Source: a virus (taxonomy: Duplodnaviria > Caudoviricetes). Taken from it: a DNA stretch of 45,794 bases. Position 1 is the first letter of the stretch. Every line of letters begins with the position of its first letter. Of this stretch, positions 3,001 to 44,617 are shown one piece after another. Made by a program: the position numbers and the translations under genes. The notes below the pieces were generated by a model. It saw only the letters and a list, made by a program, of their open reading frames with translations. It was not told where the DNA came from and did not search any database. Location of the stretch: IMG/VR virus record IMGVR_UViG_3300020379_000013, positions 1 to 45,794 of that record; one strand, given 5' to 3'.

Positions 3001-5130
3001 TATAGTGCTTAGAGATGAATCAATTGTTGTAATTGATAATACCTTAGTCTGTAATTCAAATCTTTGGAAACCTAATCCTGCAGATGTTAGAGGTAGTGTT
3101 ATTGGATTATCAGCACCCGATGCATCCTTCTGTGTTGCGTTAGCAGCAGATGCAGCAAGTCTAAACCAGTTAGGACTTTCTACATAAACAAAATATGCAG
3201 TGCCATCAACAAGACCACCGATACCGCCCATCTTACCTTGACGATATACAACACCATCTCCAGTTGTAAATTGATGATTTGTAACATAAATGTGATTGTC
3301 TTCAAACATCACATTACCAGTTGTTAACTGATGGAACTTATCATCAGGAGATACACCTGTAATATCTTTTCTACCCTGAGTTATCGTTGTGTTAGCAATT
3401 GCATTTGCTTCAAGGTCATATAATTCGATAGTATTATCATCTACCTTTCTTACCCAATAACGTGTGCCATCAATTAAACCTGGCAATGGGTTTGTATTCT
3501 CATCTTTTTCATACAATACGTTATCACCAGTTACAAAACCGTGTCCAGTAATTGTAATTCTATCAGTGGTAGTATTGATAAAGTTAGTGCTTCCTCTAAA
3601 TGCTACTGTTTCTCTCTCAGTATCAATAGTATGCTGATAAATTTGGTTAGAGATTGTCTCTAATTCTGGTCTTAATGACTCAGCATCTACAACGTCAAAT
3701 CTATCTGATACACTTGGGTTATTAATATCAGTAATAATATTAGCAAGTGCTGTTGCATCATAAAATACTTTTTCAGCGTCTTGGAATACGTCGGTAATGC
3801 CTGACGTAATCAATACTGTTACAGTTCCAGTAGAGTATGGTGATGCTACAGGACCTGTGAAGTTAATAGCTTGAACTACACCCTGTGTTCCTGATGATCC
3901 ACCTTGTAGGAAATAACCAACTTGTAAAGTTACATTGTCACCTGTATGGTTGTTAAATGTAATACTGAAGATGTTATCACCACGGAATTTATCGCCAGGT
4001 ATTGCAGGAATCTGTTCTACTTCTGGTTCGTAGTATAATCTTTGTTTGTCATCAAATACAAACGCAAATTTCCATGTATGGATTACTGTGCTTTGTGGAT
4101 CTGATGCGTTCTGTAATGCGTCTCTGAATACAACACCAAAGATGTATGTTTCGTTAGACGCCTTGATCATATGACGATCTTGGTTAGCTGGTCTAAGAAT
4201 TACTCGTCTTAAGTTGTCACCAACAAGTGAACAGTTTCTAGGTAGTGATATTGGGTTATCTTCTAGATACTCACCACCAGATACAATAATTGTTACGTAT
4301 TCATCACTTGCATCGGGTGTTGCTTTCTGCAAACCATAAGCAATTTGTGCTGCTTTCTTAACAGTTTGGACTGGTCTAGCAGCTGAACGACCATCGTTTA
4401 GATCACTACCAATGGTTTGTGATACGTATACACGACCACCAGTGTCATTAGTAGCAACTTTATATACAAAGTCAGTGGTAGCAACCCTTCTGGACTGATC
4501 ACTTAGAGGAGGTGTGTCAGCAGTTGGGAAGAATGTTGTGCCAAAAGTAGGACTTGTAACGTCTGTATCTTCAAAGTTAACTAAGTTTGGAGCACGAAGA
4601 TTCAACGCAGGGTTGATGATAGTGTCAATATCAAGGTTTGTAACCTGTGCAGTATCAGAAATGATAGAACGAGTCGTTCTAATCTGTCCCTCAACGTCTA
4701 GCTCAAACTGAGGATCGTTAGTATTGATACCAACCCTAACGTTTTCCTGTGCATTTTTGTCAATATATATTGCATCTTTCTCTAGAGCACCAGTTCCTAC
4801 TGAGATTTCTAGTGACTCATCTCCTTGAATACTTAATGAACGAACTCTTTTATATGCTAGAGTCGCACCCGCTGTAATTACACTATTTGCTGAACCTACA
4901 AAACTTAAATTATCGTCATCTACCTTAGTTACTATAAACTCTCCATCTACCTCACCACCACTTGTGAAGTCAATGTATAATTTTTCTGTCCCTATGATAC
5001 CGTGTGCAACAGTAACTATATTACCAACACCCGCAGAAGTTCGACTGTAGGTGGCGTTGACCCAATTCCCCGTCGCTTTAGACCCAGATGCTTCAATCCT
5101 TTGTTGGTCGGTATTAATCTGAAAACTCAT
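1..5130 (-). CDS. Giant virion structural/fibre protein (partial, >=1710 aa, 3' end beyond window) with split beta-helix-like domain and three phycobiliprotein-like helical modules
   Basis: Absent from the ORF track because no stop is reached. ATG at 5130 with AGGA SD. Hand translation of 5130-4020 and 2340-1 is open: MSFQINTDQQRIEASG...GRVYVSQTIGSDLNDGRSAARPVQTVKKA...GEYLEDNPISLPRNCSLVGDNLRRVILRP...GATVAQFD. The YVS..GSD.NDG/GEY.E/GDNLR motifs parallel those of the neighbouring 2415-aa protein. Confidence 0.9.
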   Translation of the reverse strand, partial: MSFQINTDQQRIEASGSKATGNWVNATYSRTSAGVGNIVTVAHGIIGTEKLYIDFTSGGEVDGEFIVTKVDDDNLSFVGSANSVITAGATLAYKRVRSLSIQGDESLEISVGTGALEKDAIYIDKNAQENVRVGINTNDPQFELDVEGQIRTTRSIISDTAQVTNLDIDTIINPALNLRAPNLVNFEDTDVTSPTFGTTFFPTADTPPLSDQSRRVATTDFVYKVATNDTGGRVYVSQTIGSDLNDGRSAARPVQTVKKAAQIAYGLQKATPDASDEYVTIIVSGGEYLEDNPISLPRNCSLVGDNLRRVILRPANQDRHMIKASNETYIFGVVFRDALQNASDPQSTVIHTWKFAFVFDDKQRLYYEPEVEQIPAIPGDKFRGDNIFSITFNNHTGDNVTLQVGYFLQGGSSGTQGVVQAINFTGPVASPYSTGTVTVLITSGITDVFQDAEKVFYDATALANIITDINNPSVSDRFDVVDAESLRPELETISNQIYQHTIDTERETVAFRGSTNFINTTTDRITITGHGFVTGDNVLYEKDENTNPLPGLIDGTRYWVRKVDDNTIELYDLEANAIANTTITQGRKDITGVSPDDKFHQLTTGNVMFEDNHIYVTNHQFTTGDGVVYRQGKMGGIGGLVDGTAYFVYVESPNWFRLAASAANATQKDASGADNPITLPLTSAGLGFQRFELQTKVLSITTIDSSLSTISTYNGPIFNLATSAASSDFHDYEVGQEVNIYGFQNTALGFGASPNTSYTISGGLITVTVTGVDNTLTSALFANLISLGQAGITFNFPNADARFSKTYHIGQFDLGAGTPTLPSNSDLGLGYGRYNSSNTTVTFVLKQANIETASDVTSSSGTGVSILDNLEDLNGRKYITHRIERADGFSLQFVVRANLSQISASLNPTGDQSVVGSNNYVLASLRNSPYGFTPINQSDRFRDGAENIRNNQEFIAEEATAYVKYYYESSATRSSALTIGGTNFGQTADTVTRGLTSWSASGDALTVRVQKGHNLYPNFSQHTPTNASYTPSNGNFVVTVNGHGFSVGDLIKFDAGAIVMTCATDSNATNHPYPRGGDPAFDKWLRITAKTTNTFTVNVGVSSDTSTHAFVSAGTNSVKKALTTVTITNSGNANINGTYGIKDIYDDREFVLDLPDNSQNGQSGSVGEFTDLQKPFRTPNSKPVDNKYGDVSELLFGNADMIADYAVNKMLAANSGYTIPTGNTACYDDVRDFIQKCVAHNLKWGGNDRVFDQAKFYIDPGFSLTRDRYAEVFGYAKDACILAGRNLPLYRNPHATKLQYYHNATLDVGAGTVRRDAATLIQKNLNLIAFEAVQRYNIDNPSHNVPGGNQNCIDDVLDLLRTIVYNLAYGGNEQVYDAAALYTSSTFLDGEETESRAVFAIAKTLARTVAISDSIGTIEGNHGFTQVLDNNNKGTTVEQGLIDDFFTIVDTAIANDNMSHATRTVATNPSCANVISSITTFFDIVTTAIGSGTTPGSVASVTRTVAPGDQQCIDDVMKITRAFQYDLRYGGNSKIVEAANLYISGASGVQHVATEVTYTRAIFAAAKELSIDAIRNNLESGQFSQITPRSNGSITVDSSAPECANVVSALTTNWGILDNVLSSGNAYGGTVTNPDPLITEQDQGKYSFPLVQTFLDLPIIEASPYIQNSSLISFLGGSGCEIDGAKVATPNVPRPGLKQNSQGATVAQFD

Positions 5131-15400: not shown

Positions 15401-15614
15401 CCTTCTTCTCCACTAGGGTTGTCAGAAGTGCCTTAACCTCATCTAGTTCTTTTCTGAGGTCTTCTAATGTTTTATCTTTTTTCTTTGCAAGTTCTCTCGC
15501 CTTGATATATGCATCATACTGCGAAGTGTCAGTATTAAGTATTGCATTAGACGTAGGATCCCTGCCAAGAGTCGTATGACCCTCAACAGGGAGTAGTTCA
15601 ATTGGTTCTTCCAT
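15393..15614 (-). CDS. Hypothetical protein (73 aa) with C-terminal coiled coil
   Basis: Coupled to the upstream gene (TAATG); PVEGH..L.RD..S.AILN motif; helical C-terminus. Confidence 0.7.
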   Translation of the reverse strand: MEEPIELLPVEGHTTLGRDPTSNAILNTDTSQYDAYIKARELAKKKDKTLEDLRKELDEVKALLTTLVEKKDK

Positions 15615-22273: not shown

Positions 22274-23788
22274 TTAGAATTCAATTACTACTTTTAGCTC
22301 TTCGTTTTGGTCTACCGAACGAGTGATCGGGATCCTATTATCTAGGTATAATATTTCACCTGAGTTTAATTCAATTTCTTCGTTGGCATAACCTCCAACA
22401 AATGATAAACCTAACTCAAAAACAGATACACCAATTGTTATCTGTGTTAGAGGAACAGAAGATGTTCCAAAGGTTGAATCTGGAGTTGCAGTATAAGAAC
22501 TTGCAGATCCTGTAATTTGATTAGAACCAGAGAAAGCAACTACGTCACCATTTACAGTTCCATCTGTTTGATCTTGATAATACTTCAAGACTTTTGTTGA
22601 TGTATCATATGATACAACCAATCCTTTTGCATTTGTAGATGCTTGAGTGATAGTCTCACCAGCTACGAATGTTCCACTAGGTGTTCCTGCACCTGACTGT
22701 GGGAATATCAATGCTTTAACAGCAGATCTAGTATTTTGACTACAAACTGTTGTAGTGTTGTAATCAGTAGGATTCAATACAAGACCAACTCTTCTATATG
22801 TTAAATCATTTGGGAAATCAATGAACGCACTAGTAGTTTCTAGTTTACTAGCAAACATAAGACGATAAGCACCTAGTTCTCTTACAGAGTCATTTCCATG
22901 ACCACCGTTAGGAGGTAATACAACATCAAGACTAGCATTTTGTCCACTACCAATATTAGGAATAAGACTTACATCAATAGATGCAAAACTATATCCAGAT
23001 CCTGCTTGTGTAATTGTCACGGAAGATACAGAACCAGATACCACAATGACTGTGCATAATGCTTGGGTTCCACCATTAATATTGTAATCACCACGAATAG
23101 GGACATTAGTAAATGTTCCGTTGTTATAACCAGATCCTGCATTCTCAATAACAACACTATCCACAGATCCTGCATTTGCTGCAGATTTTACAAGTGAGTT
23201 TGATAAAACAGGAATAAATTCTGAGGTAACAAACTTTAGAATGTTGTCAGCGTCAATAGTGTAAAGATACTTCCAACGATAAGAGTATACGCCAGGTGAA
23301 TCTGATGTTTCAATAATAGTTGTTGAAGTTCCTGTTGGTTCTACCAATGAGGGGCGTCCTCTTGGGAAGTCAGGACTTTCACCATTATAAAGACACTTGT
23401 AGACATTGAAGTCTGAGTTCATAACATAGAAGTTACTGTCATACAGTCTAGAAGAACCGTTTGCAGTAGTTTTTGTCGGTGCATAATCAGGTTTATACAT
23501 CGAATATGTTCTTCCTACGCCACCAGTGGTTTTTGTAGGATCTATCCAATCAACTCTAGGTATTACCAGAGCAGTATCGGATATGTCAACACGCTTAAAA
23601 GCAACAGAGTCACCGTAAGAAGTTCTCGCATACTCGAAACTATCAAGAGGTTCCCCTGTAGGTGGCACATCTGTGCTACCCCAAGTCTTTGCTCTACCTA
23701 CAAACATATAAACCTTATTTGAGGTCTGCAAGGTATCTCTAAAGCTTTCCGCAGCGTATATTCTAAAATTGTCTGTAACTAATGCCAT
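22274..23788 (-). CDS. gp8: Baseplate wedge subunit gp8
   Basis: YMFVGR...W, VIPRVDW, FYVMNSDFNVYKCLYN, YRWKYLYTI, SGEILYLDNR.PI.R...Q.EELK.VIEF; gp6-gp7-gp8 synteny. Confidence 0.9.
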   Translation of the reverse strand: MALVTDNFRIYAAESFRDTLQTSNKVYMFVGRAKTWGSTDVPPTGEPLDSFEYARTSYGDSVAFKRVDISDTALVIPRVDWIDPTKTTGGVGRTYSMYKPDYAPTKTTANGSSRLYDSNFYVMNSDFNVYKCLYNGESPDFPRGRPSLVEPTGTSTTIIETSDSPGVYSYRWKYLYTIDADNILKFVTSEFIPVLSNSLVKSAANAGSVDSVVIENAGSGYNNGTFTNVPIRGDYNINGGTQALCTVIVVSGSVSSVTITQAGSGYSFASIDVSLIPNIGSGQNASLDVVLPPNGGHGNDSVRELGAYRLMFASKLETTSAFIDFPNDLTYRRVGLVLNPTDYNTTTVCSQNTRSAVKALIFPQSGAGTPSGTFVAGETITQASTNAKGLVVSYDTSTKVLKYYQDQTDGTVNGDVVAFSGSNQITGSASSYTATPDSTFGTSSVPLTQITIGVSVFELGLSFVGGYANEEIELNSGEILYLDNRIPITRSVDQNEELKVVIEF

Positions 23789-23809: not shown

Positions 23810-23817
23810 TATTTATA
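23810..23817 (-). promoter_or_regulatory. T4-type late promoter TATAAATA
   Basis: Exact match upstream of gp8, overlapping the gp7 stop codon. Confidence 0.8.
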
Positions 23818-26800
23818 ATGATCTTAGACGAACTTCTGGGAGGAGACTAACGTTTCCACTTGTTGTTCGTGAGAATGGGAATTCAACTGTAAATGTTGTT
23901 GCTCCTGTTACGGTAACAATATATGTTCCGTCAAATCCAGTGCCACTAGTAAATTCTAGATAGAATCTTTGACCAGTAACTAAATTATGATTACTAGAGG
24001 TAGTGACTGTGCATGAAAGTCCGCTAGAAGTATAAGTTCCTGTAAGGACTGGATGCTCTGCAGCAGTTGTTCCTTCGGCACCTCTACCACCTGTTGCAAC
24101 TGTTAGTGTATTACCACTTACATCCTTAGAACCATACAATATTCTTTCACATGTCCATACTGGTGGAGTAACAGATGTATTGTAGAATGGTATCAATACT
24201 TCACCTTCGTCAGGGAAACCATTCTTCTCAGAAGAATTAAAGTATACATTCTTCAAGTTAATAGTAGTTCCCGCTTGTGATAATGTAGATGATAGGTAAG
24301 ATGTTCCTAATGACAATGAATTAGATATGATTCTATTTCTTTGTTTTCTTTCTAGATCTAGAGGATGAACAACTAATACAGTAGGAGCACTAGTATATCC
24401 TGCACCACCCTTTAGATTTATGACTGATAAAACTCTACCACTTCCAGTCTCAATTGTAGTCTCAGCAGACGCACCTTCTCCACCACCACCTTGGAATATT
24501 AGAATAGGTGGAACCTCATAGTTAGAACCCTGATTAGTAATATTGACTTGTGTTACCTGTCCTCCAGTTACAGTTGCAGAAAACTCAGCAACAGTTGGTT
24601 TCAAACCTGTATATTCGTAACTATCAATAGTAGTCGAACTTGAGACAGCTGCGACAAGACGATCAGAACCTTCACTAGAAATCTTAACTCTGTCTTCTGG
24701 ATCAATAGCGTTGTATGTGTTACTTACTAGAATATCTGCTGCACTACCTGTATAGATGAATAGGATACAATCAGATCCTGCTCTAGGTGCCTCACTAAAC
24801 TCTATGATAGATCCTGTTAGGTTATATGCTACGCCAGGTTCCTGATATACACCATTGAGGAATATAATCAAGTTATTTTGTGCTTGAACTGCAGCGTTGT
24901 CACTTTCTAGAGAGAATGGTTCAGTATTCTCTTTCATAGTAAATGTTTTCTTCTTACTATCAAAGAATGGTTCGATAGGATCTAATTGAGTCAATTTACC
25001 AAAGTAGAATCCAAAGAAGTCCATACCAGCTAGAGGTGGTTCTGTAAATGTAAGTGTGCTACCTGTATATGTGTATGCATCAGTTGTTCCTTTGATTTGT
25101 AATGTGCTATTCAAGAATATCAAGAAGTTATCACTTGGTGGTAATATCTGTGTAGATCCACCAGACAATGTAGTAAATACTGCATCTTGTCCATCAAAGG
25201 TTACGCTACCGACATCAACTTGGAAGAATGGTTGTGTTGATGCTGTTCTAGTAATACCGTTCAAGTTTCCACTACCACCCGCTGTAGTTCCTACTGCCTG
25301 AGTTACAATCGCCCACAATGTAGATATTGTTGATGCAGTATCAACACAGCATGCCTCGGAGTATGATGTGCTACCAGAATCATTACTAATAGTATTATCT
25401 TTTATTTGTGTGCCAACAGTATCACCATTTGTAGTAACTGTTAGGTTACGCATGACCTGACGACAAATATCTCTAGCATGATTGAATACTTCTACAGACT
25501 CATCTTCTTCTCCACCTAGATGAACTGTTCCAACATAGAAGTTAGCAGCATCGTATGTTGCATCGTTTCCACCAAACTCTACGTTGTCTGCTACTGCATC
25601 TATTAGTAAGTTTGTATCACGAACACATTTGGTTTTGTAGACAGCAGAGAAAGATGGGTTTGCTGCTTGCATTCTACCGTATGCAGTTGTAGCAATAAAG
25701 TTTTGATTAAGTCTAAGTAAGTTTCCTGCGTCTGCAACTTTGCTGTATTTGTAAACACCGTAACTGACAACTGCCCTTGTGACAGCTGTAGAAGTGGCAC
25801 TCACAAATGTATGAGTTGATGTATCAGATGATACACCTACGTTGACAGTAAATGTATTTGCAGTTACAGCGTCAATAGTATGCCATGCACCTTCTGATGG
25901 ATCTCCAACTCTAGGATATGTGTGCTGTGTTTGGTTATTATCTAAACCACATGTAAATGTTAGTGAATTATTAGCAAAGAATATTCTGTCACCTTTAATT
26001 AATGGATGACCATTCAATGTAAGAACCATCTCACCTGTAGATGGTGTGTAAGCAATATCTGTTGGTTGGAACTGGTATGCTGAGAGTCCTACCCATGTAT
26101 GTGCGTCAGTGTTTGTAGGTGCTGTTCCATTCAATGCGTTAACAGTAATTGTTGTGGTTGCCACTGCTTCAACAGGAACATCTTTCATCTTGCCTTGAGT
26201 TCCAATAGGATCTGTAGGACGTGGATATGATGCAGTTCCACCGCCACCATAGTTACAACTGAACTGTAATGACTCGTTAGCAATCCTTACTGTAGATACT
26301 GCCTTCTTAACGCTGTTTGTTACCGCAGATACGAATGTATGTGGATCAGTGTTTGTAGAAGGAATAGTATCAAGAACTTGAACTGTAAATGTATTTGTAG
26401 TGCAATCAAATGCTTCTAACCATCTGTCTGATGCATAATCTGTAGAACGAGGATAATCGTCATTACCACCACCAGAATATGTGCAACTAAATTTAATCGC
26501 ACCATCTGCAAACTTAACAAAGTCTCCATTTACAAATCCATGATCGTTAATAGTTACCACCATCAGACCTGTATTAGGATCGTATGTCGCACCTGTAGGT
26601 GTATGTGTGCTAGGTGCTGATAAACCATGTCCAGAACCTATGGTCAATACCATTTCACCAGATGCAGGAGCATATGTTGCGGTTGATGGAATGAAGTGTT
26701 TGACTAATTGTTCTCCAACACGAGGATCAGATATTGCTAATACATCATTGTCTGTATAACCATTACCAGCTGCATTGAGAACGACACCACTTACTTTACC

Positions 26801-29800
26801 ACCAGTAACTGTAATATCAGCAGTTGCACCAACACCAGAACCTAATCTATTCTTAAGTGGCACTGCAGTGTATACGCCATCGCTATACCCACTACCACCT
26901 GTGATTGCACCAAATGTTTTTATCTCATCTCCAATCTGATCTAATACAAATGAACTAGTGTAATCAGAACGATCAAAATACATTGCGAGGACTTTACTGC
27001 CTGATAATGGTGGAGTAACAAATGTTACAACGTTATTTGCAAATGTGTAAGTAGCAGGGTTTGCAATCAATCCATTTATCGCTAATAATAATTGTGATGT
27101 TGCTGCAGTCTTACCGATCTTAGTTCCTATGTCAATACCATCAACTCTTACTGCAAATGAGTCATTGATACCGTCTATAAAGCATCTTAGTGTATGTCCT
27201 ACACCTGATCCTTGTGATGTTAGATCTATTGAGGTTGCACCGTCTGTTAATGCTAATTCTATTGTATTTGCATCTACAACTTTAACAAAATACTTACTAG
27301 CATTTGTAAGTCCACCAATAGGTGTGCCAGCTCTGTTGTTTGGATAATTCCCTGCATTGATAGTAGGTAGTGCAGCAGTAGGATCTGCGATAGCACCTGT
27401 AACTATTCCTGCAAAGATTGTGATAGCACTCTTGACATCAGCACAACCACCAGAATCATTAGTAATACTTAGATCTGTTTGTGGAACTATGTCTGTGTAT
27501 GTTCCTACTGGAAGATCGTTAGTTACTGCTAATAAACATAAGTCTCTTGCTTTATTAAATGCATATATTGTTTCTGCCTCTTCACCAGCTACGTGTTGAA
27601 TACCTGTCCCGTCAGTATATTGTTGTGCAGCATCCACACTAAAGTAGTTACCACCATACTTAAGATCATTTGTCCATGCTGCGATTACAAGTCTAGTATC
27701 TCTAGCACATTTTGCTTGATCGTATGTTAGTGATGGATATAGAGCATTTAAGAAACCAATTGTCTCTTCTACAATATAATCAATGTTATTGACGATTAAA
27801 TCTCTAGCATCTAAGAATCTATCTCCACCAGAGAAGTAAGTTACTTGTTGTCCTGTTAGAAGACCATGATTAGTAATTGTAATTCTATCATTGATACTAT
27901 CTACAATAGTAGTGCTAGATCCGTCAAATGTTAATGTCCTGTCGCTAATATCATCAATCTTATATGAGATACAAGATAAGATCTTCTGAACGTCTAATAA
28001 CTGTTTTCCGTAGATAGAAACCTCTGTAGGAACTAATGCAGTGTAATCTGGTTTGGATAATGCAAAGTTACTAATCTTAGATAATTTACCAGTATTCTTA
28101 GCAGATGGTTTTGGTGTTATGAAGGTTGTTCCATTAAATGTTGTGCCAAGAGTATTTGTATTTGGTGACCACCAATCAAATTGACTACTTGGGTTGAGAT
28201 TAGAAGTTGATCTTGGTCTAAACTCTTTCTTGACACTTGATAGTAATACTTGTGTTCCAACTACCTTAAATCCTGCAGGGTGTGCTGCAAACTTAAGTGG
28301 ATTCTTCCAACTATTAATATTAATTGAAGATGATATGTTATATGAGAATTCTTGGAATCTATTACTGTCATATACACGTTGTTCGTTAAGATCTAAGAAT
28401 CCAGTTGTCTTCTCCCAGTTTGCAGATGATGTGCTAATTGGTGATACGATAAATTCAGCATCTGCTCTATCAAATGCATGTATCTGACCAAACGCACCAG
28501 ACTCTTCACCAAATACAGGTTCGCCAACTACAAAGTCACCTTCTATAAGTTCAACACTAACAACACGACCTGATGCATCCCAATTCTTAATAAATCCAAA
28601 TGCAGTAAATGATGTATTAGATGCACCCTGATATATTCTCTCTCCAATAGAGAAAGTAGCTGGTTTCATGTATGCAATGATATTGTCACCTAAATCTGTA
28701 GTTTCAAGAAGGAAATAAGTTTGACCTGTAAGTGGATCGCCTAAAGGTGGACTTGTAAATGAAATTGTAGTCTCAGTGTTTGCATTAGCAAGAGATGTTG
28801 CTAATTTGATCTGATTAGTTGCTAATCCATTTGCAGTAGTTGCTGCTACAGCAAAATATGTTGTTCCTGCTACTAATGGTTCTGGAAGAGTTCCAGATGA
28901 CTCTACTAGAGTAACTTTGGTTCCTGATGGAATCTTAGCGTTATATGGGAAGTTTATTGTGCTACTTGAGTTAAGTGCTACAAATGTATGACTGACTTTT
29001 GCCTTAACTGTAGGTGCAGATGTAAATCCTCTACCAGAATTGTTAACCTCTACTGCCTGTATAATCTCGTTCTGTATTATTGGTTCTAACTCAAATAATG
29101 AACCTTGACCACCATCAAGTATGATTTCTGGTTGTGATACAAAATTAGCACCACCATTTACAACTTCAAGATAATCAATAACTTGAGTTCTGACTAATTG
29201 TAAATTATAGGTTGTATTTAACTTTGGTTTTAGTGTTCTATCGTGACTGTAGTTAAATGTAATGTTCTCACCACCAATCTTCAATATCTCACCCATATCT
29301 GATGACTTAAGAAGTATTGATGCACCAGTTCCAGATTTCTGCTCAATATTGATTATTGGAGGACTTTGATATTGTTGTCCACCAGCTTCAATATTAATAA
29401 GAGATACACCTTGATTTGATATCAATGCATTTAATGAAGAGTTGATTCCATTACCACCTTGTGCACTGATAGTAGGTGCAGATAGATAACCAGATCCAGA
29501 GTTCGTTACAGTTATAGTGTCTATTGCTGCATCTAGTAATGTCTTAGTTTGGACGACATCATTGAATGTCATTGTAACTGGTTCTATGACTAAATCATCA
29601 GCACCATCACTTCCACCTAAGTCTGCTCCAGATATTGTAATATCGTCTGCTATGTTATATGCAGTTCCACCATTTGTTACAGTTACTGTCTCAACAGTTC
29701 CTGCACCGTTCGTGGCCACCGTAAATTCAGCACCAGTCGCACTGGTTCCTGCTATAGACTTTTGTTGTATACCTGTGTATGTTTGACTTGCTCCATAGTT

Positions 29801-32800
29801 CGTTGCAGATTGAGTCTTAATTGAGACAGTTGCGATTATACCGTAATATGGATCGTCAAATAATACTGTTGGTGCATTTCTATAATTTGTTCCTGCCTGT
29901 GTAACTGTTACTGATGATACTTGACCCGCACCAGAAACCGCTGCAGCAACTGTAGATTGCGTTCCTGATATTGTATTAATAATTGCTACTGAGTTACCAC
30001 CTGTATAAACTCTTGAGAGAATCTTAAACTCCTGTGTGCCAGTTCCAGAATTGGTTACAGTGATCGCAGTGCCTACTTCTGCTAGCTGTGGTGTCTCTGC
30101 TAACTTCACACGATCTGAATCACCTATGTTGATAATGTAGTATGTTTGTCCTACTGTAAGATTACTAACTGGGTTAGTCTGTGCTGAGACATATTTGACT
30201 GGATCTCCAGTTTTTGCATCATGTGCTCCAAAGAAGAATTGATCTGCATATCCTACTGCGTCAATCTGTGATGGATTGATACTATATGATTTACCCGCAT
30301 TGAACATGATATATCCTTTCTGTCCTGCACCAACTCTTGTATTACGTAGAGGTTGTATTCTTAATACTGATGTAATTGGGTTCCATGATATAACCTTTCC
30401 TCTAGCAGTGCTATTATCTTGAACTTCTTTTCCAATAATGATTTCATCTTTAATAAAGTTGCCTAATATATTTTCTAGCGTCAAATCTACAAAATCAGGC
30501 ATTGTTACAACACAAGTAGGCAAATCAGCTTGATTATAACCAGATCCGTTATTTGATATTGATACATTTGATAATCCACCAGAAATAGTCGCTACAGCAG
30601 TAGCACCTGACCCAGATCTAGAAGAACCACTTAATTTAGGTAATGATTGATAATTTCTACCACTATCTCCAATTGTTATAGTTGCAACACCGCCTGTTGG
30701 GTATATTGAACTTGTATCATATGATACACCTACTCCATAACCAGCTTCGGGTGCAACTGCCATACTGTAGGAGAACTCAGTGGTGCCACTTACTGCGATA
30801 ACTGTCTGATCGCCTAATATCGGGTCATTGATTATTGAGAAATACCTACTATTAGAAACATCACTCTTAATAGAGATTACGTTACCCATATAAGCATGGT
30901 TTTGACAAACGTAGTGTAAATTGTTTGGAGAATCTACTGTAGGGGTAATTTCTACACTTCTAGAAACTGCAGTTCCGAAGTTAGCGTTATAATCGTCCCA
31001 AGAAACTACATCACCGTTAATTCTATAAACAACTCCTTTCTCATATCTGTTTGTGCCACCATATGCATCCTCACTCTCTGAGAAGTAGATAGCATGTGTA
31101 GTATTTGATGAATCGTTCTGTAAGAATGTATATGTTACACCACGAGACATAGTAAGTGATGGTGACTGAGCAAGACTTCCATATTTGTCACCAGTCATCC
31201 AATATCCTTTACCAGATCCTTGACCAAACAGAGGATGATCAGCTGTTTTGTTCTGAACTACAACTGTAAAGGTATTTGGTGCTGTAATTGTATGTTTAAT
31301 GTCATGGTAATAGAAAATGCCAGGCAAATCTACTATTTTGACTGTTAGAGAGTTCTGTTCGTTGGTGATTGGATCTCTAGACTCTTCAATAATGTTTTTG
31401 TAAGTAAAGATGTCTGTATTTGCAGGATCAAGTGTAAATGATAGAACTTGTCCACTATTACTTGCATCAGATGTATCAAAGATGTATGAGTGTCCATTTA
31501 TAACTGATAAGTTTGGTTCTTTGACGTAAATGTCTGCAGGATTACCACTATTACCTGTTGTAACATTTGCTGCACTTGTTGCTGCAAAGTTTCTCTTGAC
31601 TGTAAACTTCCTAGCAGTCTCTGATCTCACTACAACATAGTTTGTCTTATTGTAAGACGTAGGTGAGACACCTGAGATATTAACAATGTCTCCTGCACTA
31701 AGTTGATGTGAGTTAATACCACTAACGTGACACTGAACTTCTCGTTGCACTTGAGTTAGTGTGATAGTAAACCCAGATCCACCACCATTACCAATATTAA
31801 TATCATCTGCAGATATTGTATCACCGATATCATAACCATATCCAAATTCTGTAATTGTAACTGCTTGAACAGCACCACTACCAACAACTATAGTTGCCTT
31901 TCCTAATAATCCATCACCATTGGTTGTTATAGGGACATTGATGTATGTTCCGTTAGTATAACCAGAACCACCAGTAATAGATGACCAACCATCTTGGAAT
32001 AAGTTACCATCTGTTCTTACTCTAAGGTAAGTCCAATCTAAAACTCCGTCTCCTGCAGTTCCAGTAGTATGTGTAGGTGAAGATGCTCCAGAAGTTCCAG
32101 TGCTAGCTGCAACGTATACTCTATTTGCTACATGAACTAAATCTCCTTCAACATATGCAGTAGTTCCCGCCCAAGCATCAAGTAATTTCATACTTTGTAA
32201 ATCAAAGTATTTGAAATGATAATTGCTATTAATAACCTTACTTGTTAATGTTCTTGTAGCAGCGTTGTCAGTTACCTTTATATCGACTCTATCACCAACT
32301 TGTAGTAGATGACTATTTGCAGTGGTTACTATAGCAACAAACTGATCATTGTAAGTTCCAACAAAACGTGCTACTGAATTAACAGTAGTTCCTTCAATTT
32401 GAGATACGATTGCACTTACACCATCTCCACCAGTTCCAGTATTATCAAACTGTAACCTATCGTTGACCTTATATTCTTTACCACCACCTTCTACAAGATA
32501 TTGATTTACACCAGCTGATGAAAACTTATTAGTAGAAGATACAATTAGAGAATCCGCAGATCCACCTCTAACGAAAGGATAGTAACTAAAGTATCCGATA
32601 CCATCTTCAATATATGTTAATGTCTCACCAGTCTCCATGACTATGAGAGTAGTGCTATCTTCCATTGCAAGGAAGAAGTCAATCTTATCGTCTAATTGCT
32701 TTCTCTTTGCTGTAATATTATCAACACCTACAAATGGTGCTCTGTAACGTATTGCGTCTTCATTAAAGTTTCTCTGCAATCCATTACCATTCCAGTTTAC

Positions 32801-35800
32801 TTCATCCGCTTCACCGTAAAACTCTGATCCTACAAAGTATGGGAATGCGGGATAACCAGTGGTTCCTGTAATAGTTGTAAAGTAAGCATACACTCCATTT
32901 GGATATTCTGGAGTTACGCAGTATCTGCCATTGTAACGGTCTAAATCACCAAGACCTTCCACATATTCATAATCCTCAAGATATGTGCCTAGAGGGTCAC
33001 TGAGACCGCTTAGAATAGACGCTCTTGATGTCTTTACTCTGTAACTACTTCTAATACGTTTATATGAGTTGAAAGGTGCGGTATTCTCAGGATCTTCATA
33101 TCCGTAAGGTCCGTAGATAGGATGTCCGTCATACGCCCAACCAATAATAGGTGAGTGCACTGTAGGAGGTAATTCCTGCAGAGCTCCGTTATTATCTAAA
33201 CCAATACTATCCTTAAGTAAGAATCTTAGTTGCTTAGGATTATAGAGGTAACCATATTCGCCATTGAAGATTAGATAGTTCTCACCTTGGAATGTAGCAC
33301 CACCGTATACGTCTGTAGTCTTGGGTGATACAAATGTATTACTGCCTAGTTCATTACCTGTTGCTGCTTCATTGACAGATAGTTCTGTAAGTCTAGTCTG
33401 GAAACGTGCACCTGAGCCAGGATATACAATATCAATCCTAGTAGAACCCGCTGTATAACCAACACCCTTACTTGATACAGTAATACCAGTAACAATATTA
33501 GAAGATAGATCTACAGTAGCAAATGCAGTCGCACCAACTCCGTCTCCTGTAATAATAACGTCTGGAGGACCGAAGTATCCACTACCACCGAATGTAACAA
33601 TTATACTCTCTATCTTACCGTTTAGTATTGATGGATAAGCAACAGCTCCGCTTCCACTTATCAGATTGATAGTTGGTTCGTATGTATACTGCGATCCTGC
33701 ATTATCAATAGTAATAGTATCTACAGGACCTCGACAAACTGCACTAGCAGTTGCACCACTTCCGCCTCCTCCTGATATGGATACCGTAGGAACGCTCGTA
33801 TATCCCGCACCACCATTCACAATAGTAATACCAGTTACGGAACCTTCCGTAATTTGTGCGGTAGCAAACGCTTGGTTTCCGCTAGTTGCACCACCACCGA
33901 CGATTGATACGATAGGTTGCGTAGTATATCCGCTTCCTCCACTCGTTACGTTGATAGAGGTTACGGAACCTGTAATAATTACGGATGCTTCTGCACTTGC
34001 TCCCTCATACTCCCAATCAATAGTTCCTACTGTTACTACTCCTAATGTGTGGATAGGATAGACTGTAGGTGATGATTTGCCAGGATTGAGTGATCTGTAT
34101 CTGTTTCCGTTATATGTTACTCTAAGACCAGATGCATACGTTGTATCTAACTTATACTCAGGTTCAAATTCTACAGTAGGTGGGTTTGTGATGTCATATC
34201 CAGATCCACCAATTATTTTCTCAATACTTTTTACACCACCAAACTTTTTCGTATTATTAGACTTAAATGAGAATAGTGGGACACCATTTGCACCAATACC
34301 AACTTGACCTACAGGAGTTGATGTTTTTTGTGATTTTATGCTTGGTTTAAGAGGAATACGTTTTAGATATCTCTGATTGCCAGGATCTAGGTCATTTGCA
34401 GCAAAAGGTCCTATCTTATGTGTAGGAATTCCTGTGCTTGCTACTATTGCATTAGAATCTGACTGATATGTGTTTTGAACGTCACCTGTAGTATCTTTGA
34501 TCGCTATATTGATAGATGTGTCATCACTCTTACCAAATGCAAATTCTCTAGCAATAAAGAACTCAATACCAGATATACCTTGTGCAGGAGATGATGAGAA
34601 GATAAACTCGAATGTAAAGTCGTCAACAATACCTACAACAGTGTGACTATTGTTGTAAATGTCTTCTGGAGCATTTAAGATTCTAACAGAGTCATCTCTG
34701 ACCAATCTATGCTTCTCTTTCGTCACTACCGTGCATCTTACCGATCCATTCGCTAATGGCGTTCCTAGGGTCGCTGAGACGCCTCTGAGAGCACGTCTTA
34801 CGTTGTATACAAAACTATCCCATATAGGATCAATGCTATCAAAGCCAGGTGCAAGGGGAGTAGTGACTTTTGAGTCTGGTAAGTAGTATCTACCACCAGT
34901 ATTCAGTATTACACCTCTAGTGCCACCAAATATCTTTAATTGTATCTCAGAACTGTCTACATTGGAAGAACCGTAGATTTTAAACGCAGCAATAACGTCT
35001 TGACCCGCATCATGTGCAATATTGACTGTATTGTCTCTAGCACGACTACATCCAAGGAATTGTGTAACTGTTTTATCGGTATAACTGATTATTTCGTCTT
35101 TTATCCTAAACTTACCATTTGTTTCAGGCCACCCTAGTGTAGAATCGACTGTAACAGTAGTATCTGTTAAATTAGCACCTAAATCCTCCGCTAACATCGT
35201 TTTATACGGAGTTACGAAGGTTCCTACTGAATTATTGGTATCTACGTCAATTTCATAGATTGTTCCAGTAGAAGTAAACACTTCTACGACGCCTTTTACG
35301 TAAATTCTTGCAAATCCGATATTTGGGTCGTTTGGATCTGCATCTTGATATAATACTTCGCCTACAAGTTCTATTGGGTTGCCTTTTAACGGAACTGCAC
35401 GAATAATTTCTCTAGAAGTGTAAAATGCATCACTAGGTTTGAATATTCTCTCTCTAGGGTATGATACTTCTGAGTCTACGCCAAATAATGCTCTTAATAC
35501 AAACTGGAATGATCTACTTGTTCCTTTTGACGAGTAGAAGTCCTTAATACGTTTTATTACAGTGCTTTCTGTTACGTTAGGTGCAAAATTCTTTGGAAAT
35601 GTGTTTAGGAACTGTTCCTTAAACTTCCCAAGCATGTAAATTGGGAAAATGTTGTTTAAGTTGACAACTTCTGTGCCTTGAGTGTGTGTTGCAGCTGTTG
35701 TAAACTCAAATCTGTAGTCTGCCTTCAATCCAACTGCCTTTACAGCGTTAAATCCACGCCCACAGTCTTGAAATAGTGTTGAACCCTTGCTTTGGTAGTA

Positions 35801-36184
35801 AATTATCTCATCATCTATCAATAAAAGTCCTTCTGACGGAAAATCACGTGTAGATTCAACGTCAATCGTTGTAGAATCTGCAGAAGTTGCAGAAATCAAC
35901 TTTGTAGTCGTAACTAGATCGCCATAATTGTCAATATTATAATAATCTGACCAGTTTTGAATTATATCAATGCAATATCCTTTTAATTCTTGCGATTTAT
36001 AGTATTCCTTGACAAAATCAATGAACGTAGGATACTCTTCCCGTATAAACGACGGAAATTGTCCTCTTATATGTGTTGATATTTTGGATCTAGATTCGGG
36101 ACTGACTTCCGATGGCACAGGCGGTTGTGTAACCGTTGTGGTAGGTGTCGTCCACGACCCAACTCTCCAAGAACTATTTGTCAT
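23813..36184 (-). CDS. gp7: Baseplate wedge initiator gp7-like, massively expanded (4123 aa) with inserted accessory modules
   Basis: Q.P.FIREEYP.F..F.KEYY N-terminus; IK.IKDFY.SKGT..SF.F..RALF; QEFSY.I.S......WK......HPAGFK; position between gp6 and gp8. Confidence 0.85.
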   Translation of the reverse strand: MTNSSWRVGSWTTPTTTVTQPPVPSEVSPESRSKISTHIRGQFPSFIREEYPTFIDFVKEYYKSQELKGYCIDIIQNWSDYYNIDNYGDLVTTTKLISATSADSTTIDVESTRDFPSEGLLLIDDEIIYYQSKGSTLFQDCGRGFNAVKAVGLKADYRFEFTTAATHTQGTEVVNLNNIFPIYMLGKFKEQFLNTFPKNFAPNVTESTVIKRIKDFYSSKGTSRSFQFVLRALFGVDSEVSYPRERIFKPSDAFYTSREIIRAVPLKGNPIELVGEVLYQDADPNDPNIGFARIYVKGVVEVFTSTGTIYEIDVDTNNSVGTFVTPYKTMLAEDLGANLTDTTVTVDSTLGWPETNGKFRIKDEIISYTDKTVTQFLGCSRARDNTVNIAHDAGQDVIAAFKIYGSSNVDSSEIQLKIFGGTRGVILNTGGRYYLPDSKVTTPLAPGFDSIDPIWDSFVYNVRRALRGVSATLGTPLANGSVRCTVVTKEKHRLVRDDSVRILNAPEDIYNNSHTVVGIVDDFTFEFIFSSSPAQGISGIEFFIAREFAFGKSDDTSINIAIKDTTGDVQNTYQSDSNAIVASTGIPTHKIGPFAANDLDPGNQRYLKRIPLKPSIKSQKTSTPVGQVGIGANGVPLFSFKSNNTKKFGGVKSIEKIIGGSGYDITNPPTVEFEPEYKLDTTYASGLRVTYNGNRYRSLNPGKSSPTVYPIHTLGVVTVGTIDWEYEGASAEASVIITGSVTSINVTSGGSGYTTQPIVSIVGGGATSGNQAFATAQITEGSVTGITIVNGGAGYTSVPTVSISGGGGSGATASAVCRGPVDTITIDNAGSQYTYEPTINLISGSGAVAYPSILNGKIESIIVTFGGSGYFGPPDVIITGDGVGATAFATVDLSSNIVTGITVSSKGVGYTAGSTRIDIVYPGSGARFQTRLTELSVNEAATGNELGSNTFVSPKTTDVYGGATFQGENYLIFNGEYGYLYNPKQLRFLLKDSIGLDNNGALQELPPTVHSPIIGWAYDGHPIYGPYGYEDPENTAPFNSYKRIRSSYRVKTSRASILSGLSDPLGTYLEDYEYVEGLGDLDRYNGRYCVTPEYPNGVYAYFTTITGTTGYPAFPYFVGSEFYGEADEVNWNGNGLQRNFNEDAIRYRAPFVGVDNITAKRKQLDDKIDFFLAMEDSTTLIVMETGETLTYIEDGIGYFSYYPFVRGGSADSLIVSSTNKFSSAGVNQYLVEGGGKEYKVNDRLQFDNTGTGGDGVSAIVSQIEGTTVNSVARFVGTYNDQFVAIVTTANSHLLQVGDRVDIKVTDNAATRTLTSKVINSNYHFKYFDLQSMKLLDAWAGTTAYVEGDLVHVANRVYVAASTGTSGASSPTHTTGTAGDGVLDWTYLRVRTDGNLFQDGWSSITGGSGYTNGTYINVPITTNGDGLLGKATIVVGSGAVQAVTITEFGYGYDIGDTISADDINIGNGGGSGFTITLTQVQREVQCHVSGINSHQLSAGDIVNISGVSPTSYNKTNYVVVRSETARKFTVKRNFAATSAANVTTGNSGNPADIYVKEPNLSVINGHSYIFDTSDASNSGQVLSFTLDPANTDIFTYKNIIEESRDPITNEQNSLTVKIVDLPGIFYYHDIKHTITAPNTFTVVVQNKTADHPLFGQGSGKGYWMTGDKYGSLAQSPSLTMSRGVTYTFLQNDSSNTTHAIYFSESEDAYGGTNRYEKGVVYRINGDVVSWDDYNANFGTAVSRSVEITPTVDSPNNLHYVCQNHAYMGNVISIKSDVSNSRYFSIINDPILGDQTVIAVSGTTEFSYSMAVAPEAGYGVGVSYDTSSIYPTGGVATITIGDSGRNYQSLPKLSGSSRSGSGATAVATISGGLSNVSISNNGSGYNQADLPTCVVTMPDFVDLTLENILGNFIKDEIIIGKEVQDNSTARGKVISWNPITSVLRIQPLRNTRVGAGQKGYIMFNAGKSYSINPSQIDAVGYADQFFFGAHDAKTGDPVKYVSAQTNPVSNLTVGQTYYIINIGDSDRVKLAETPQLAEVGTAITVTNSGTGTQEFKILSRVYTGGNSVAIINTISGTQSTVAAAVSGAGQVSSVTVTQAGTNYRNAPTVLFDDPYYGIIATVSIKTQSATNYGASQTYTGIQQKSIAGTSATGAEFTVATNGAGTVETVTVTNGGTAYNIADDITISGADLGGSDGADDLVIEPVTMTFNDVVQTKTLLDAAIDTITVTNSGSGYLSAPTISAQGGNGINSSLNALISNQGVSLINIEAGGQQYQSPPIINIEQKSGTGASILLKSSDMGEILKIGGENITFNYSHDRTLKPKLNTTYNLQLVRTQVIDYLEVVNGGANFVSQPEIILDGGQGSLFELEPIIQNEIIQAVEVNNSGRGFTSAPTVKAKVSHTFVALNSSSTINFPYNAKIPSGTKVTLVESSGTLPEPLVAGTTYFAVAATTANGLATNQIKLATSLANANTETTISFTSPPLGDPLTGQTYFLLETTDLGDNIIAYMKPATFSIGERIYQGASNTSFTAFGFIKNWDASGRVVSVELIEGDFVVGEPVFGEESGAFGQIHAFDRADAEFIVSPISTSSANWEKTTGFLDLNEQRVYDSNRFQEFSYNISSSININSWKNPLKFAAHPAGFKVVGTQVLLSSVKKEFRPRSTSNLNPSSQFDWWSPNTNTLGTTFNGTTFITPKPSAKNTGKLSKISNFALSKPDYTALVPTEVSIYGKQLLDVQKILSCISYKIDDISDRTLTFDGSSTTIVDSINDRITITNHGLLTGQQVTYFSGGDRFLDARDLIVNNIDYIVEETIGFLNALYPSLTYDQAKCARDTRLVIAAWTNDLKYGGNYFSVDAAQQYTDGTGIQHVAGEEAETIYAFNKARDLCLLAVTNDLPVGTYTDIVPQTDLSITNDSGGCADVKSAITIFAGIVTGAIADPTAALPTINAGNYPNNRAGTPIGGLTNASKYFVKVVDANTIELALTDGATSIDLTSQGSGVGHTLRCFIDGINDSFAVRVDGIDIGTKIGKTAATSQLLLAINGLIANPATYTFANNVVTFVTPPLSGSKVLAMYFDRSDYTSSFVLDQIGDEIKTFGAITGGSGYSDGVYTAVPLKNRLGSGVGATADITVTGGKVSGVVLNAAGNGYTDNDVLAISDPRVGEQLVKHFIPSTATYAPASGEMVLTIGSGHGLSAPSTHTPTGATYDPNTGLMVVTINDHGFVNGDFVKFADGAIKFSCTYSGGGNDDYPRSTDYASDRWLEAFDCTTNTFTVQVLDTIPSTNTDPHTFVSAVTNSVKKAVSTVRIANESLQFSCNYGGGGTASYPRPTDPIGTQGKMKDVPVEAVATTTITVNALNGTAPTNTDAHTWVGLSAYQFQPTDIAYTPSTGEMVLTLNGHPLIKGDRIFFANNSLTFTCGLDNNQTQHTYPRVGDPSEGAWHTIDAVTANTFTVNVGVSSDTSTHTFVSATSTAVTRAVVSYGVYKYSKVADAGNLLRLNQNFIATTAYGRMQAANPSFSAVYKTKCVRDTNLLIDAVADNVEFGGNDATYDAANFYVGTVHLGGEEDESVEVFNHARDICRQVMRNLTVTTNGDTVGTQIKDNTISNDSGSTSYSEACCVDTASTISTLWAIVTQAVGTTAGGSGNLNGITRTASTQPFFQVDVGSVTFDGQDAVFTTLSGGSTQILPPSDNFLIFLNSTLQIKGTTDAYTYTGSTLTFTEPPLAGMDFFGFYFGKLTQLDPIEPFFDSKKKTFTMKENTEPFSLESDNAAVQAQNNLIIFLNGVYQEPGVAYNLTGSIIEFSEAPRAGSDCILFIYTGSAADILVSNTYNAIDPEDRVKISSEGSDRLVAAVSSSTTIDSYEYTGLKPTVAEFSATVTGGQVTQVNITNQGSNYEVPPILIFQGGGGEGASAETTIETGSGRVLSVINLKGGAGYTSAPTVLVVHPLDLERKQRNRIISNSLSLGTSYLSSTLSQAGTTINLKNVYFNSSEKNGFPDEGEVLIPFYNTSVTPPVWTCERILYGSKDVSGNTLTVATGGRGAEGTTAAEHPVLTGTYTSSGLSCTVTTSSNHNLVTGQRFYLEFTSGTGFDGTYIVTVTGATTFTVEFPFSRTTSGNVSLLPEVRLRSL

Positions 36185-36190
36185 ATTAGA

Positions 36191-38041
36191 TTAATAGCTA
36201 GACTCTGGAATTACTCCTGTTCCAGATAAGTTTGAACCACTACTGATAGTATCTTCTACTACAGTAACTACTGAGTTATCTATACCCATAGTAATATAAG
36301 TTTCTCGGAGAGAAACCAAGTCATTTGACTTAGGTGTAGCTTTAATTTGTAATGTATTATTTGTTACACTAGTAGATTGTATTATCAAGTCATTAATTAC
36401 AATCTCTCCCATATCATAATCTACGGATCCCCATAATCCATCAATATACTCAAACTCACCAGTTCCTTTAACGTAGTAAAGTCTTAATGACCCTGCACCA
36501 TCGTCATTTAGGAAGTAAGTATTGATGTCATCACCCACAATCTTGAATCCACTCGATAATATAGTTGGATTTGTAGATGTTTGTTGGTTAATTCTGTTAC
36601 CGTAGCAAATACTGTAGTTTACACGAGTGTTTAGATCTACTGTAACGTTCTTTCTCATAGTAATACGAGTGATGTTAGAGGTAATTGACCTTTCTGCATC
36701 ATCAATAATGTTCTGAACCTTAGAATATTTGAATTTACCACCAAATTTATTAAATTCACCACTAGCATTCAGTGCATTTAGTGTAATTATGATAAGATTC
36801 TTTATTTCTGCAGGAGTTCTGCGTGTATTATTGGGATTGTAATACACAAAACTGTTCAAATCTACGTAAAGAACCGATGGATCAATGATTGTAGGTTGAA
36901 TTGCAGCAACAGAGAAGTCTCTGAGCTTCTTCAATACAGAATTTTTCTCAGAAAGTGATAATTTATCAGCATTTCTTGGTTTGATTGCCAAAAATACCTT
37001 ACCAAATTGGGGAGGTTCCGCTTCTTCTCCACCGTAACATGCAATTGACGCAACGTTTGGGTATATTTGCGGTATAATTGCCTCATAATCTTGAGTAGAA
37101 ACTGCTCTACCGAACGCAGAATAGAATTTTGGTGCGGAAAACTTGATAGATTCCGTAGATTCTGGTTCTGCTCCTCCATCTGGGAACGTAACTGTGCTAA
37201 TTGTAATGCCAGAAGTTATAGCATTGTTCAAATTATCTCTAAAAGTTCCGATATTTTCAAAAACTTTCAGTCCATTAGCACCAGCTCCTGCAGAAGTTGT
37301 ATATTTTACGGTTACAACGTCTCCATTCTCCAGTGCTTTTCCTATTACACCGTCTCCAAATAGTATTTCTGGTATCTGATACTCACTTTCTTCCAAGTAG
37401 AATACTTTAGATGTAGATGTAATCTTAGTAATGTCTGATACTTGTAGGTATTTCTCTGTAATTGTTCCAGAAGTTACCTCTACAATCATGCTTGTAGTAT
37501 CGACTCTATTGTTTGTTAGTATAAATCTCTGTCTCTGTGTCTCATTTTTTACAAAAGTATCTTGTAAGTATAGTCCTTCCGTTAATTCTAGGTTGTTGAA
37601 CGATGCAATTCCTGTTAAACTGTCTACAGATTGTGAAACATCTGTTGGAATAGAGAATACAAAGTTGTTATTATCGAGTCCTGTGAAGTTTAGAACCAAT
37701 CCTGCAGCAATTGTGACTGACTTAGGGTAAGGAAATGCAGTTTGAACTGCAATATTGACTGTAGTTCTTGCTGACTTTGCAGAATTTGGTGTGTAACCAA
37801 TCATTCTAGCAAGTTTTACAACGTTTTCTCGTAAAACTGCAGTCTCTAGGAACCCTTCATTGACCGCAAGGTTGGCATTTACTGCTGTGTAGTATGTGTT
37901 ATACGCTAATGTATCAATTAATACAGTAAGAGACGATCCTTCAAAGTCATAATCGCTAAATTGTGACTGCGATTTCAAATATTCTTTGATTTGTGCCTTG
38001 ATTTGGTTAAATTCAAGAGCATTGACTTGATTAAATGCCAT
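36191..38041 (-). CDS. gp6: Baseplate wedge subunit gp6
   Basis: F.DYDFEGS.L.VLID.LAYNTYY, LRENVV.LAR.IGYTP.S, FGDGVIGK, RAV..QDYE, P.FGKVF.AIKP. Confidence 0.93.
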   Translation of the reverse strand: MAFNQVNALEFNQIKAQIKEYLKSQSQFSDYDFEGSSLTVLIDTLAYNTYYTAVNANLAVNEGFLETAVLRENVVKLARMIGYTPNSAKSARTTVNIAVQTAFPYPKSVTIAAGLVLNFTGLDNNNFVFSIPTDVSQSVDSLTGIASFNNLELTEGLYLQDTFVKNETQRQRFILTNNRVDTTSMIVEVTSGTITEKYLQVSDITKITSTSKVFYLEESEYQIPEILFGDGVIGKALENGDVVTVKYTTSAGAGANGLKVFENIGTFRDNLNNAITSGITISTVTFPDGGAEPESTESIKFSAPKFYSAFGRAVSTQDYEAIIPQIYPNVASIACYGGEEAEPPQFGKVFLAIKPRNADKLSLSEKNSVLKKLRDFSVAAIQPTIIDPSVLYVDLNSFVYYNPNNTRRTPAEIKNLIIITLNALNASGEFNKFGGKFKYSKVQNIIDDAERSITSNITRITMRKNVTVDLNTRVNYSICYGNRINQQTSTNPTILSSGFKIVGDDINTYFLNDDGAGSLRLYYVKGTGEFEYIDGLWGSVDYDMGEIVINDLIIQSTSVTNNTLQIKATPKSNDLVSLRETYITMGIDNSVVTVVEDTISSGSNLSGTGVIPESSY

Positions 38042-38430
38042 TATGGTTTAAATGCTACTGTAATATCATCAAATTTAGGTTGTATGCCTAATATCAAGTA
38101 ATTTATGGATACATTGAACTCGTTACGATCCTCTTCAAACACTGTATTTACACTAACAGCGGTAACTCTAGGTTCATATACCTCTATTGCTTCTTCTAAA
38201 CGGTATTTAATCTCTAAATCCATTGTTGGTGTAAAATTCTCGAACAATAGACCAACTATGTTACCACCGAAGAACGGGTCAAAAGGTTTCTCAAAAAAAT
38301 TGTAGAGAACAATGTTCTTTACTGACTGTTTAATTGCAGCTTCGTTCTTCAATGACAACACATCGTTTGTCACAGCATTCTTTTCAAATGTTAGTGAAAA
38401 GTCCCTAAAGGACTTTGAAGTCAAAGCCAT
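38041..38430 (-). CDS. gp25: Baseplate wedge subunit gp25 (GPW/gp25 family)
   Basis: AIKQSVKNIV.....EKPFDP.FG.....LLFE and YEPRV motifs; directly upstream of gp6. Confidence 0.9.
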   Translation of the reverse strand: MALTSKSFRDFSLTFEKNAVTNDVLSLKNEAAIKQSVKNIVLYNFFEKPFDPFFGGNIVGLLFENFTPTMDLEIKYRLEEAIEVYEPRVTAVSVNTVFEEDRNEFNVSINYLILGIQPKFDDITVAFKP

Positions 38431-44566: not shown

Positions 44567-44569
44567 GTT

Positions 44570-44611: not shown

Positions 44612-44617
44612 AGTAAT

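Follow-up and report, generated by a model that had tools for sequence, protein, structure and literature searches.

Phycobiliproteins of the family PF00502 are free-standing phycobilisome subunits of 160-185 residues. In their beta chains (CpcB, PecB, CpeB), helices X and Y precede a globin core that holds a helix-E bilin site, Cys82/84-x-Arg-Asp, and, far from it, a second bilin cysteine in the last helix (Cys153/155/158), the beta-155 bilin having Asp39 as its counter-ion; alpha chains have the helix-E motif K-C-x-R-D-x-G-Y and lack the Asp39/Cys155 site. A phycobiliprotein domain is also built into the large multidomain protein ApcE (LCM), as a single copy that serves as thylakoid anchor and has its cysteine at another position. 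PMC2327270 describes the ApcE domain as self-ligating, and PMC10151467 describes bilin biosynthesis-associated globins (BBAGs) as bacterial, non-antenna globins that carry a CXRD motif, bind bilins with no need of a lyase and are associated with genes for heme oxygenase and reductase; in that study they were photoinert. We report here that phycobiliprotein-type domains are embedded in giant tail proteins of a T4-like cyanophage, a P-HM1-like Prochlorococcus myovirus analysed as one stretch of 45,794 nt (45.8 kb; IMG/VR record IMGVR_UViG_3300020379_000013; hereafter the window). The record is about 25% complete, so genes beyond the window were taken from a P-HM1-type genome (G001), the gp23 of which equals that of P-HM1. 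Two copies, modules A and B, lie in frame in the 4123-residue baseplate wedge protein gp7, flanked by gp6 and gp8, where a first-pass annotation had placed them, and three more (C, D and E) lie in a tail-fibre-like open reading frame (ORF) that runs off the window (Table 1). Over module B, identity to gp7 of Prochlorococcus phage P-HM1 is 89.5%.

Modules A and B are phycobiliprotein-derived domains rather than phycobilisome subunits. Their homology to phycobiliproteins is secure, with profile search, profile-profile alignment and structure search in agreement on both the relationship and the fold that the first-pass annotation had recognised by eye. It surfaces through profiles and folds only; searched singly, neither module matched PF00502 in Pfam or, by phmmer, any phycobiliprotein in the PDB. 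A profile of the five window copies gave 41 PDB matches at E ≤ 10, 40 of them phycobiliproteins or a phycobiliprotein-like chain. With a 91-copy profile, the best match was phycocyanin beta (E 5.9e-7), and the 60 best of 137 rows were all of phycobiliprotein type. PF00502 was matched at E ≤ 0.1 by 47 of 95 single copies, and the fibre ORF clears the cut-off of that family owing to module D. AlphaFold models of both modules were of high confidence (pLDDT 94.6 for A, 95.8 for B), with a globin-type helical core. In the VIA structure search, both matched residues 33-184 of phycoerythrin beta (5aqd_M) best among 48,161 chains, module A at Z 17.4 (2.0 A over 140 residues) and module B at Z 16.6 (2.1 A over 140 residues). 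The eight best structural matches were phycobiliproteins, with heme and sensor globins from Z 11.6 downward; the ApcE domain, at Z 14.0-14.8, fell below phycoerythrin beta. The leading Foldseek rows for module B were all phycobiliprotein beta chains, the best E against the PDB (1.3e-3) not reaching 0.001. A search of the ESM Atlas gave no usable match, and matches in viral structure databases bear generic names only.

What the modules share with the beta chains is the globin core, which starts near residue 33 and takes in the rest of the chain, at 15-19% identity and with the two-site pattern of CpcB and PecB. Alignments begin at phycobiliprotein residues 33-36, and upstream of the modules there is a Gly/Thr-rich tail repeat and no helix X or Y, so an alpha/beta dimer or trimer is not expected. 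The modules further differ from beta chains in lacking the Cys50/61 site and in having a shorter loop before helix E, a GGN motif, an invariant Tyr and a remodelled helix F. With the alpha chains they have the helix-E motif in common, but A and B possess the Asp39/Cys155 site that alpha chains lack. A jumbo-phage profile of the domain matched phycocyanin alpha best (E 1.2e-3), and a marine profile matched phycoerythrin alpha at E 3e-7. Unlike PF00502 members, the phage copies are embedded, repeated and nested in tail proteins of 1000-7000 residues, no search having been aimed at free-standing phage forms. The phage copies have the CXRD motif in common with BBAGs, to which they may be related.

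Both modules retain the residues of the bilin site. Against a reference of 10 alpha and 7 beta phycoerythrin chains drawn from 10 metagenome loci, hhalign (E 1e-7 to 2e-7) placed Asp39, Cys82, Arg84, Asp85 and the last-helix Cys of phycoerythrin beta on D3485, C3520, R3522, D3523 and C3613 of module B, with the same correspondence in module A. The Cys84-x-Arg-Asp motifs and last-helix cysteines named in the first-pass annotation are present, at window positions 27707-27709 (C2826), 25625-25627 (C3520), 27443-27445 (C2914) and 25346-25351 (C3612/C3613). Retention extends beyond that claim, as A and B both keep the Asp39 and Cys155 equivalents of the second site. Each also has a helix-G cysteine (C2883, C3574) that had been missed; in module B it is replaced in 3 of 32 orthologs, its column in the wider family is usually hydrophobic, and hhalign gave no support to its being the second site of phycoerythrin alpha. 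The last-helix C-C pair proposed for module B holds for one member, C3613, kept in 32/32 orthologs; C3612 is C in 17 of them and D in 15.

Modules A and B are homologous to each other (phmmer E 4e-18). Matches to C-x-R-D-x(12-16)-GGN number two in gp7, and of 20,000 shuffles a single one held any, a rough control only, since the pattern was picked after viewing the sequence. Among close orthologs, the site residues are conserved: the three Cys, Arg, Asp and Tyr of module A are unvaried in 17/17, and D3485, C3520, R3522, D3523 and C3613 of module B in 32/32. Because 85 of 146 positions in A and 63 of 152 in B are equally invariant, this conservation adds little.

In the wider family, a profile search yielded 1120 representatives at 50% clustering. 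Conservation was counted over 1539 copies from the 150 best of these, in which a single protein can hold as many as 34 matched stretches. The central column is Cys in 1449 of 1500 aligned copies, followed by Arg in 1387/1498 and Asp in 1487/1498. The bilin-ligating Cys and the counter-ion Asp are the most invariant residues, above most hydrophobic core positions, and the central Cys column accounts for 1449 of the 3110 cysteines in the 150 proteins. In 391 of 588 near-full copies, the central Cys stands alone, which speaks against an internal disulfide. Where the last-helix Cys occurs, it is accompanied by the Asp39 equivalent (76/76 rows, of 91 in the alignment; 89/91 in another count).

The fibre copies add nesting to repetition. 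The last helix of module C probably lies at residues 1468-1492 (window 655-729, with C1471), pushed away by module D, and the first helices of module E are probably those at residues 939-971 (window 2218-2316, with D943), about 530 residues ahead of its core. Modules C and D and a beta-rich repeat would then likely be nested within module E, a three-level nesting across window 259-2316. Nesting is direct in relatives (L018-L020, L032, L036), where module A carries an entire further copy in its middle loop, as at L018:394-1341 and L032:1342-2286. Each unit of the beta-rich repeat has a His, a Y-P-R motif and a single conserved Cys; the repeat stands beside globin copies at window ~25770-26600 and at fibre residues 1025-1103; P-SSM4 and P-SSM7 have about 10 units of it, and it is a possible metal site.

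Three queries of isolate genomes returned 273, 321 and 91 records, all cyanophage-named except one marine virus. A plasmid collection gave no domain match, and GTDB genomes gave seven motif matches on six contigs of four assemblies, from which we make no host assignment. Among 17 cyanophage isolates, nine have both the domain and the bilin lyase gene cpeT (P-HM1, P-SSM4, P-RSM4, P-SSM7, S-SSM5, Syn9, ACG-2014f, S-PM2, S-CAM7) and seven have neither (P-SSM2, S-SSM7, S-SM2, S-CRM01, P-TIM68, S-CAM9, Sf-FS3); S-SKS1, with the domain and no detected cpeT, is the sole discordant isolate. The weight of this concordance (16/17, Fisher p 4e-4) is lessened by the relatedness of the genomes, by our own choice of isolates and by five of the nine positives having also fed the cpeT profile. 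On a gp23 tree of 23 rows, four changes of the domain are needed; cpeT shifts alongside it at the main split, at ACG-2014f/S-CAM7 and in G004, the sister of P-SSM2, and not in S-SKS1. In P-HM1 and S-PM2, cpeT sits among baseplate-hub and tail-fibre genes, in S-PM2 three small genes ahead of a domain-rich fibre gene. CpeT of P-HM1 reportedly bound phycoerythrobilin and did not transfer it to a host subunit (work by Gasper in 2017). Cys155 is the target of T-type lyases, as stated in PMC2327270 and PMC10452541. The last-helix Cys is present in 29 of 56 domain segments from cpeT-bearing cyanophages, nested copies hiding some sites, and in 0/75 segments of nine jumbo records without detected cpeT, many of them unaligned at the last helix.

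A bilin reductase gene lies between two cpeT genes at L347:4236-6209 (in genome G011) and at G030:35454-37381. The G011 cassette stands one gene ahead of a large fibre-like gene, the start of which matches the domain-rich fibre of S-PM2.

Jumbo phages carry the domain in a different gene setting. The 364-kb, 100% complete genome G017 has neither psbA nor cpeT; its genes for heme oxygenase and bilin reductase stand side by side, and the domain is matched 11 times. Three further genomes found via the G017-type reductase (G049, G050, G051) have the oxygenase beside the reductase, no detected cpeT and at least 7-10 domain matches. Among long reductase-bearing contigs, the domain occurs in 8 of 18, that is, in 6/6 over 100 kb and in 2/12 shorter ones (16-27% complete). 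A major-capsid scan returned mostly fragments; in the five longest (22-60% complete), an uninformative sample, the domain is found in three and the reductase in none. Genome G023 has cpeT, and psbA and gp23 were not matched in the 71% of it that is available; within a 2418-residue stretch, 13/13 cysteines occupy the C-x-R-D position. PMC11480375 calls it enigmatic why phages predicted for proteobacteria carry hemO-pcyA/X.

The G023 repeats (L582, G023:4800-13500) are in tandem and of about 110 residues, shorter than the full domain. Beside the oxygenase-reductase pair of G017 (L345:4547-13264) are genes that we take by eye to resemble curli assembly and curlin genes, ClpS, Hsp20 and DnaK. In G018, stops and frame breaks in the domain, gp23 and psbA matches (85743-86628, 113720-114924, 171043-171916) suggest sequencing errors.

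Judging from sequence comparison, we think that the modules probably bind a bilin covalently, in which case the assembled tail, and with it the virion, would be pigmented. The first-pass annotation had proposed covalent binding and a pigmented baseplate; its site residues stand, and the pigment remains a conditional reading. Family conservation, the single-Cys majority and the co-occurrence with cpeT likely strengthen it. A possible course of events begins with insertion of a phycobiliprotein globin core into gp7, minus the N-terminal helices by which light-harvesting trimers are assembled. At a late stage of infection, P-HM1-like phages would use phycoerythrobilin made by phage Ho1 and PebS, and others a host bilin. 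Phage CpeT, a T-type lyase, would ligate the bilin to the Cys155-type site, and host CpeS or self-assembly would load the Cys84-type site, both ahead of assembly into baseplate and fibre. For the single-site copies of jumbo phages, self-assembly without a lyase, in the manner described for CXRD globins in PMC10151467, would suffice. The split in the last-helix Cys between cyanophages and jumbo phages fits a lyase-specific second site.

Several observations weigh against covalent binding. The central Cys is present in 0/3 copies of P-SSM4, where cpeT, pcyA and one last-helix-type Cys remain, and in 1/8 segments of jumbo phage G049. About eight residues ahead of helix E are gone, including the RR/RK pair of beta subunits, and the helix-F region comes out as a loop in both models, so the pocket differs from that of phycobiliproteins. 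The argument from Cys conservation is tempered by the beta-rich repeat, which likewise holds one Cys per unit in the same proteins. Covariation of Asp39 and Cys155 was dropped as independent evidence, since a within-protein shuffle equalled the coupling in 2197 of 5000 trials and the pairing may reflect subfamily ancestry. The last-helix Cys occurs in 0/14 segments of G023 despite its cpeT. Well-supported branches of the gp23 tree force one change only. In cyanophages, the bilin reductase was rejected as a correlate of the domain (4/10 versus 3/7, p 1.0), being present without it in P-SSM2, S-SSM7 and Sf-FS3. In pelagiphage Mosig, which has genes for heme oxygenase and reductase, the domain was not found with two profiles; this rules out that hemO-pcyX invariably serves it. 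In this SAR11 phage, ferrochelatase, heme oxygenase and bilin reductase genes adjoin neck genes (L522:354-4681).

The Cys-lost lineages, the shortened loop and the remodelled helix F also suit the chief rival, that a captured phycobiliprotein fold serves without pigment as a structural spacer or scaffold, its Cys, Arg and Asp being kept for folding or packing. Copies without the Cys persist in P-SSM4 and G049, the pocket loops are altered, and copies nest and form tandem arrays as generic building blocks do. Our literature search found no pigmented cyanophage, and indeed no description of the domain or of any pigment-bearing virus, although it could appear in subscription papers or in supplementary annotation tables. 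We nevertheless consider an unpigmented scaffold unlikely: ligating Cys and counter-ion Asp exceed most of the hydrophobic core in invariance, the two distant second-site residues are both kept, and the domain tracks a bilin lyase gene. It is improbable that the domain is instead an apo or noncovalently loaded mimic that binds host phycobiliproteins, linkers, lyases, free bilin or a host surface component. Its fold is that of a host protein and its isolate matches are nearly all cyanophage-named, but the helices for alpha/beta contacts are absent, in the LRY interface motif Asp mostly takes the place of Arg, and the domain, which resides in virion proteins, has multiplied most in jumbo phages that lack psbA, such as G017. 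Least probable of all is that the cysteines form disulfides or a metal site stabilising the extracellular virion, for which speak the three Cys of A and four of B (C3574 at the end of helix G may come near C3612/C3613 at the start of helix H) and against which speak the single-Cys copies, the confinement of the 13 cysteines of G023 to the C-x-R-D position and the variable, usually hydrophobic helix-G column, inter-domain or inter-chain disulfides being possible.

If the modules do bind bilin, the purpose of the pigment is the least certain step. We rank first a passive pigment that absorbs light or quenches oxidants, itself short of an even chance; light control of adsorption and a fold-stabilising cofactor are both possible and less likely. 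The double bond isomerised in phytochromes is missing from phycoerythrobilin. This, the photoinert BBAGs and the arrays of dozens of copies, which suit a bulk role, put a passive pigment slightly ahead of a sensor. PMC6628666 and 10.1101/167650 report that P-HM1 and P-HM2 fail to adsorb in darkness and that S-PM2 requires light, though not photosynthesis, for adsorption; dark adsorption is seen with P-SSM2, P-SSP7 and P-GSP1, light still raising that of P-SSM2. Light-dependent adsorption is there linked to receptors or tail fibres (PMC6628666). We found the domain in P-HM1, P-HM2 and S-PM2 and not in P-SSM2, P-SSP7 or P-GSP1. This correspondence is weakened by P-HM1 and P-HM2 being one lineage, by two of the dark-adsorbing phages being podoviruses and by the remaining light response of P-SSM2. 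That the tail is a bilin-bearing light sensor, with phage bilin attached by CpeT to gp7 and the fibre and arming adsorption only in light, therefore seems doubtful to us; if true, it would explain why the first three phages need light and the other three adsorb in the dark, and would supply a virion-borne target for the hemO-pcyX cassette of jumbo phages.

The targets of phage CpeT, PebS and Ho1 in Prochlorococcus, which has no standard phycobilisomes, are called unclear in PMC2984593, and a pigmented tail would give the unexplained cpeT a target. The domain makes three questions testable with cultured phages: the targets of CpeT, PebS and Ho1, the purpose of hemO-pcyA/X, and light-dependent adsorption. 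A small monomeric phycobiliprotein core would, if bilin-binding, also make a useful fluorescent tag.

Table 1. Domain copies and tail genes in the window, with site residues in the numbering of the encoding protein (eq., equivalent)
Feature	Position	Strand	Residues	Site residues	Basis
Module A, phycobiliprotein globin core without helices X/Y	27386..27823	-	gp7 2788-2933	D2792 (Asp39 eq., from sequence); C2826/R2828/D2829 (Cys84 site); Y2856; C2883; C2914 (Cys155 eq.)	AF2, VIA, hhalign
Module B, second copy	25289..25744	-	gp7 3481-3632	D3485; C3520/R3522/D3523; Y3550; C3574; C3612; C3613 (Cys155 eq.)	AF2, VIA, Foldseek
Module C	1216..1575	-	fibre 1186-1305	D1190; C1226; D1229	
Module D	766..1197	-	fibre 1312-1455	D1316; C1352; D1355; own last helix without Cys	
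Module E core	259..618	-	fibre 1505-1624	C1512; D1515; C1603	
gp7, baseplate wedge protein, host of A and B	23813..36184	-	4123 aa		PF23786 (weak), YHYH, CBM5/12; phrog_2885; P-HM1 gp7 annotation
Tail-fibre-like ORF, runs off window, host of C, D and E	1..5130	-			PF00502 23.1 bits (cut-off 22.2); phrog_5342
gp6 + gp25, baseplate genes, upstream context	36191..38430	-			
gp6, upstream neighbour of gp7	36191-38041	-			
gp8, baseplate gene, downstream context	22274..23788	-			

The minus strand of the window encodes gp25, gp6, gp7 and gp8 together with more giant virion proteins. Two of these, one with a LamG domain (window 5704-12951) and one with DUF4815 (window 15614-22273), have no globin copies. 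A region at 43862-45568 that looked duplicated proved on checking to contain no repeat. In the listed coordinates of S-PM2 (NC_006820; L608:13557-18384), 16 tRNAs fall within the short-tail-fibre coding sequence and are probably misplaced. Besides its globin copies, gp7 has a YHYH domain and CBM5/12-like chitin-binding repeats, at window 32867-33262 and 34094-34156 (residues 975-1106 and 677-697).

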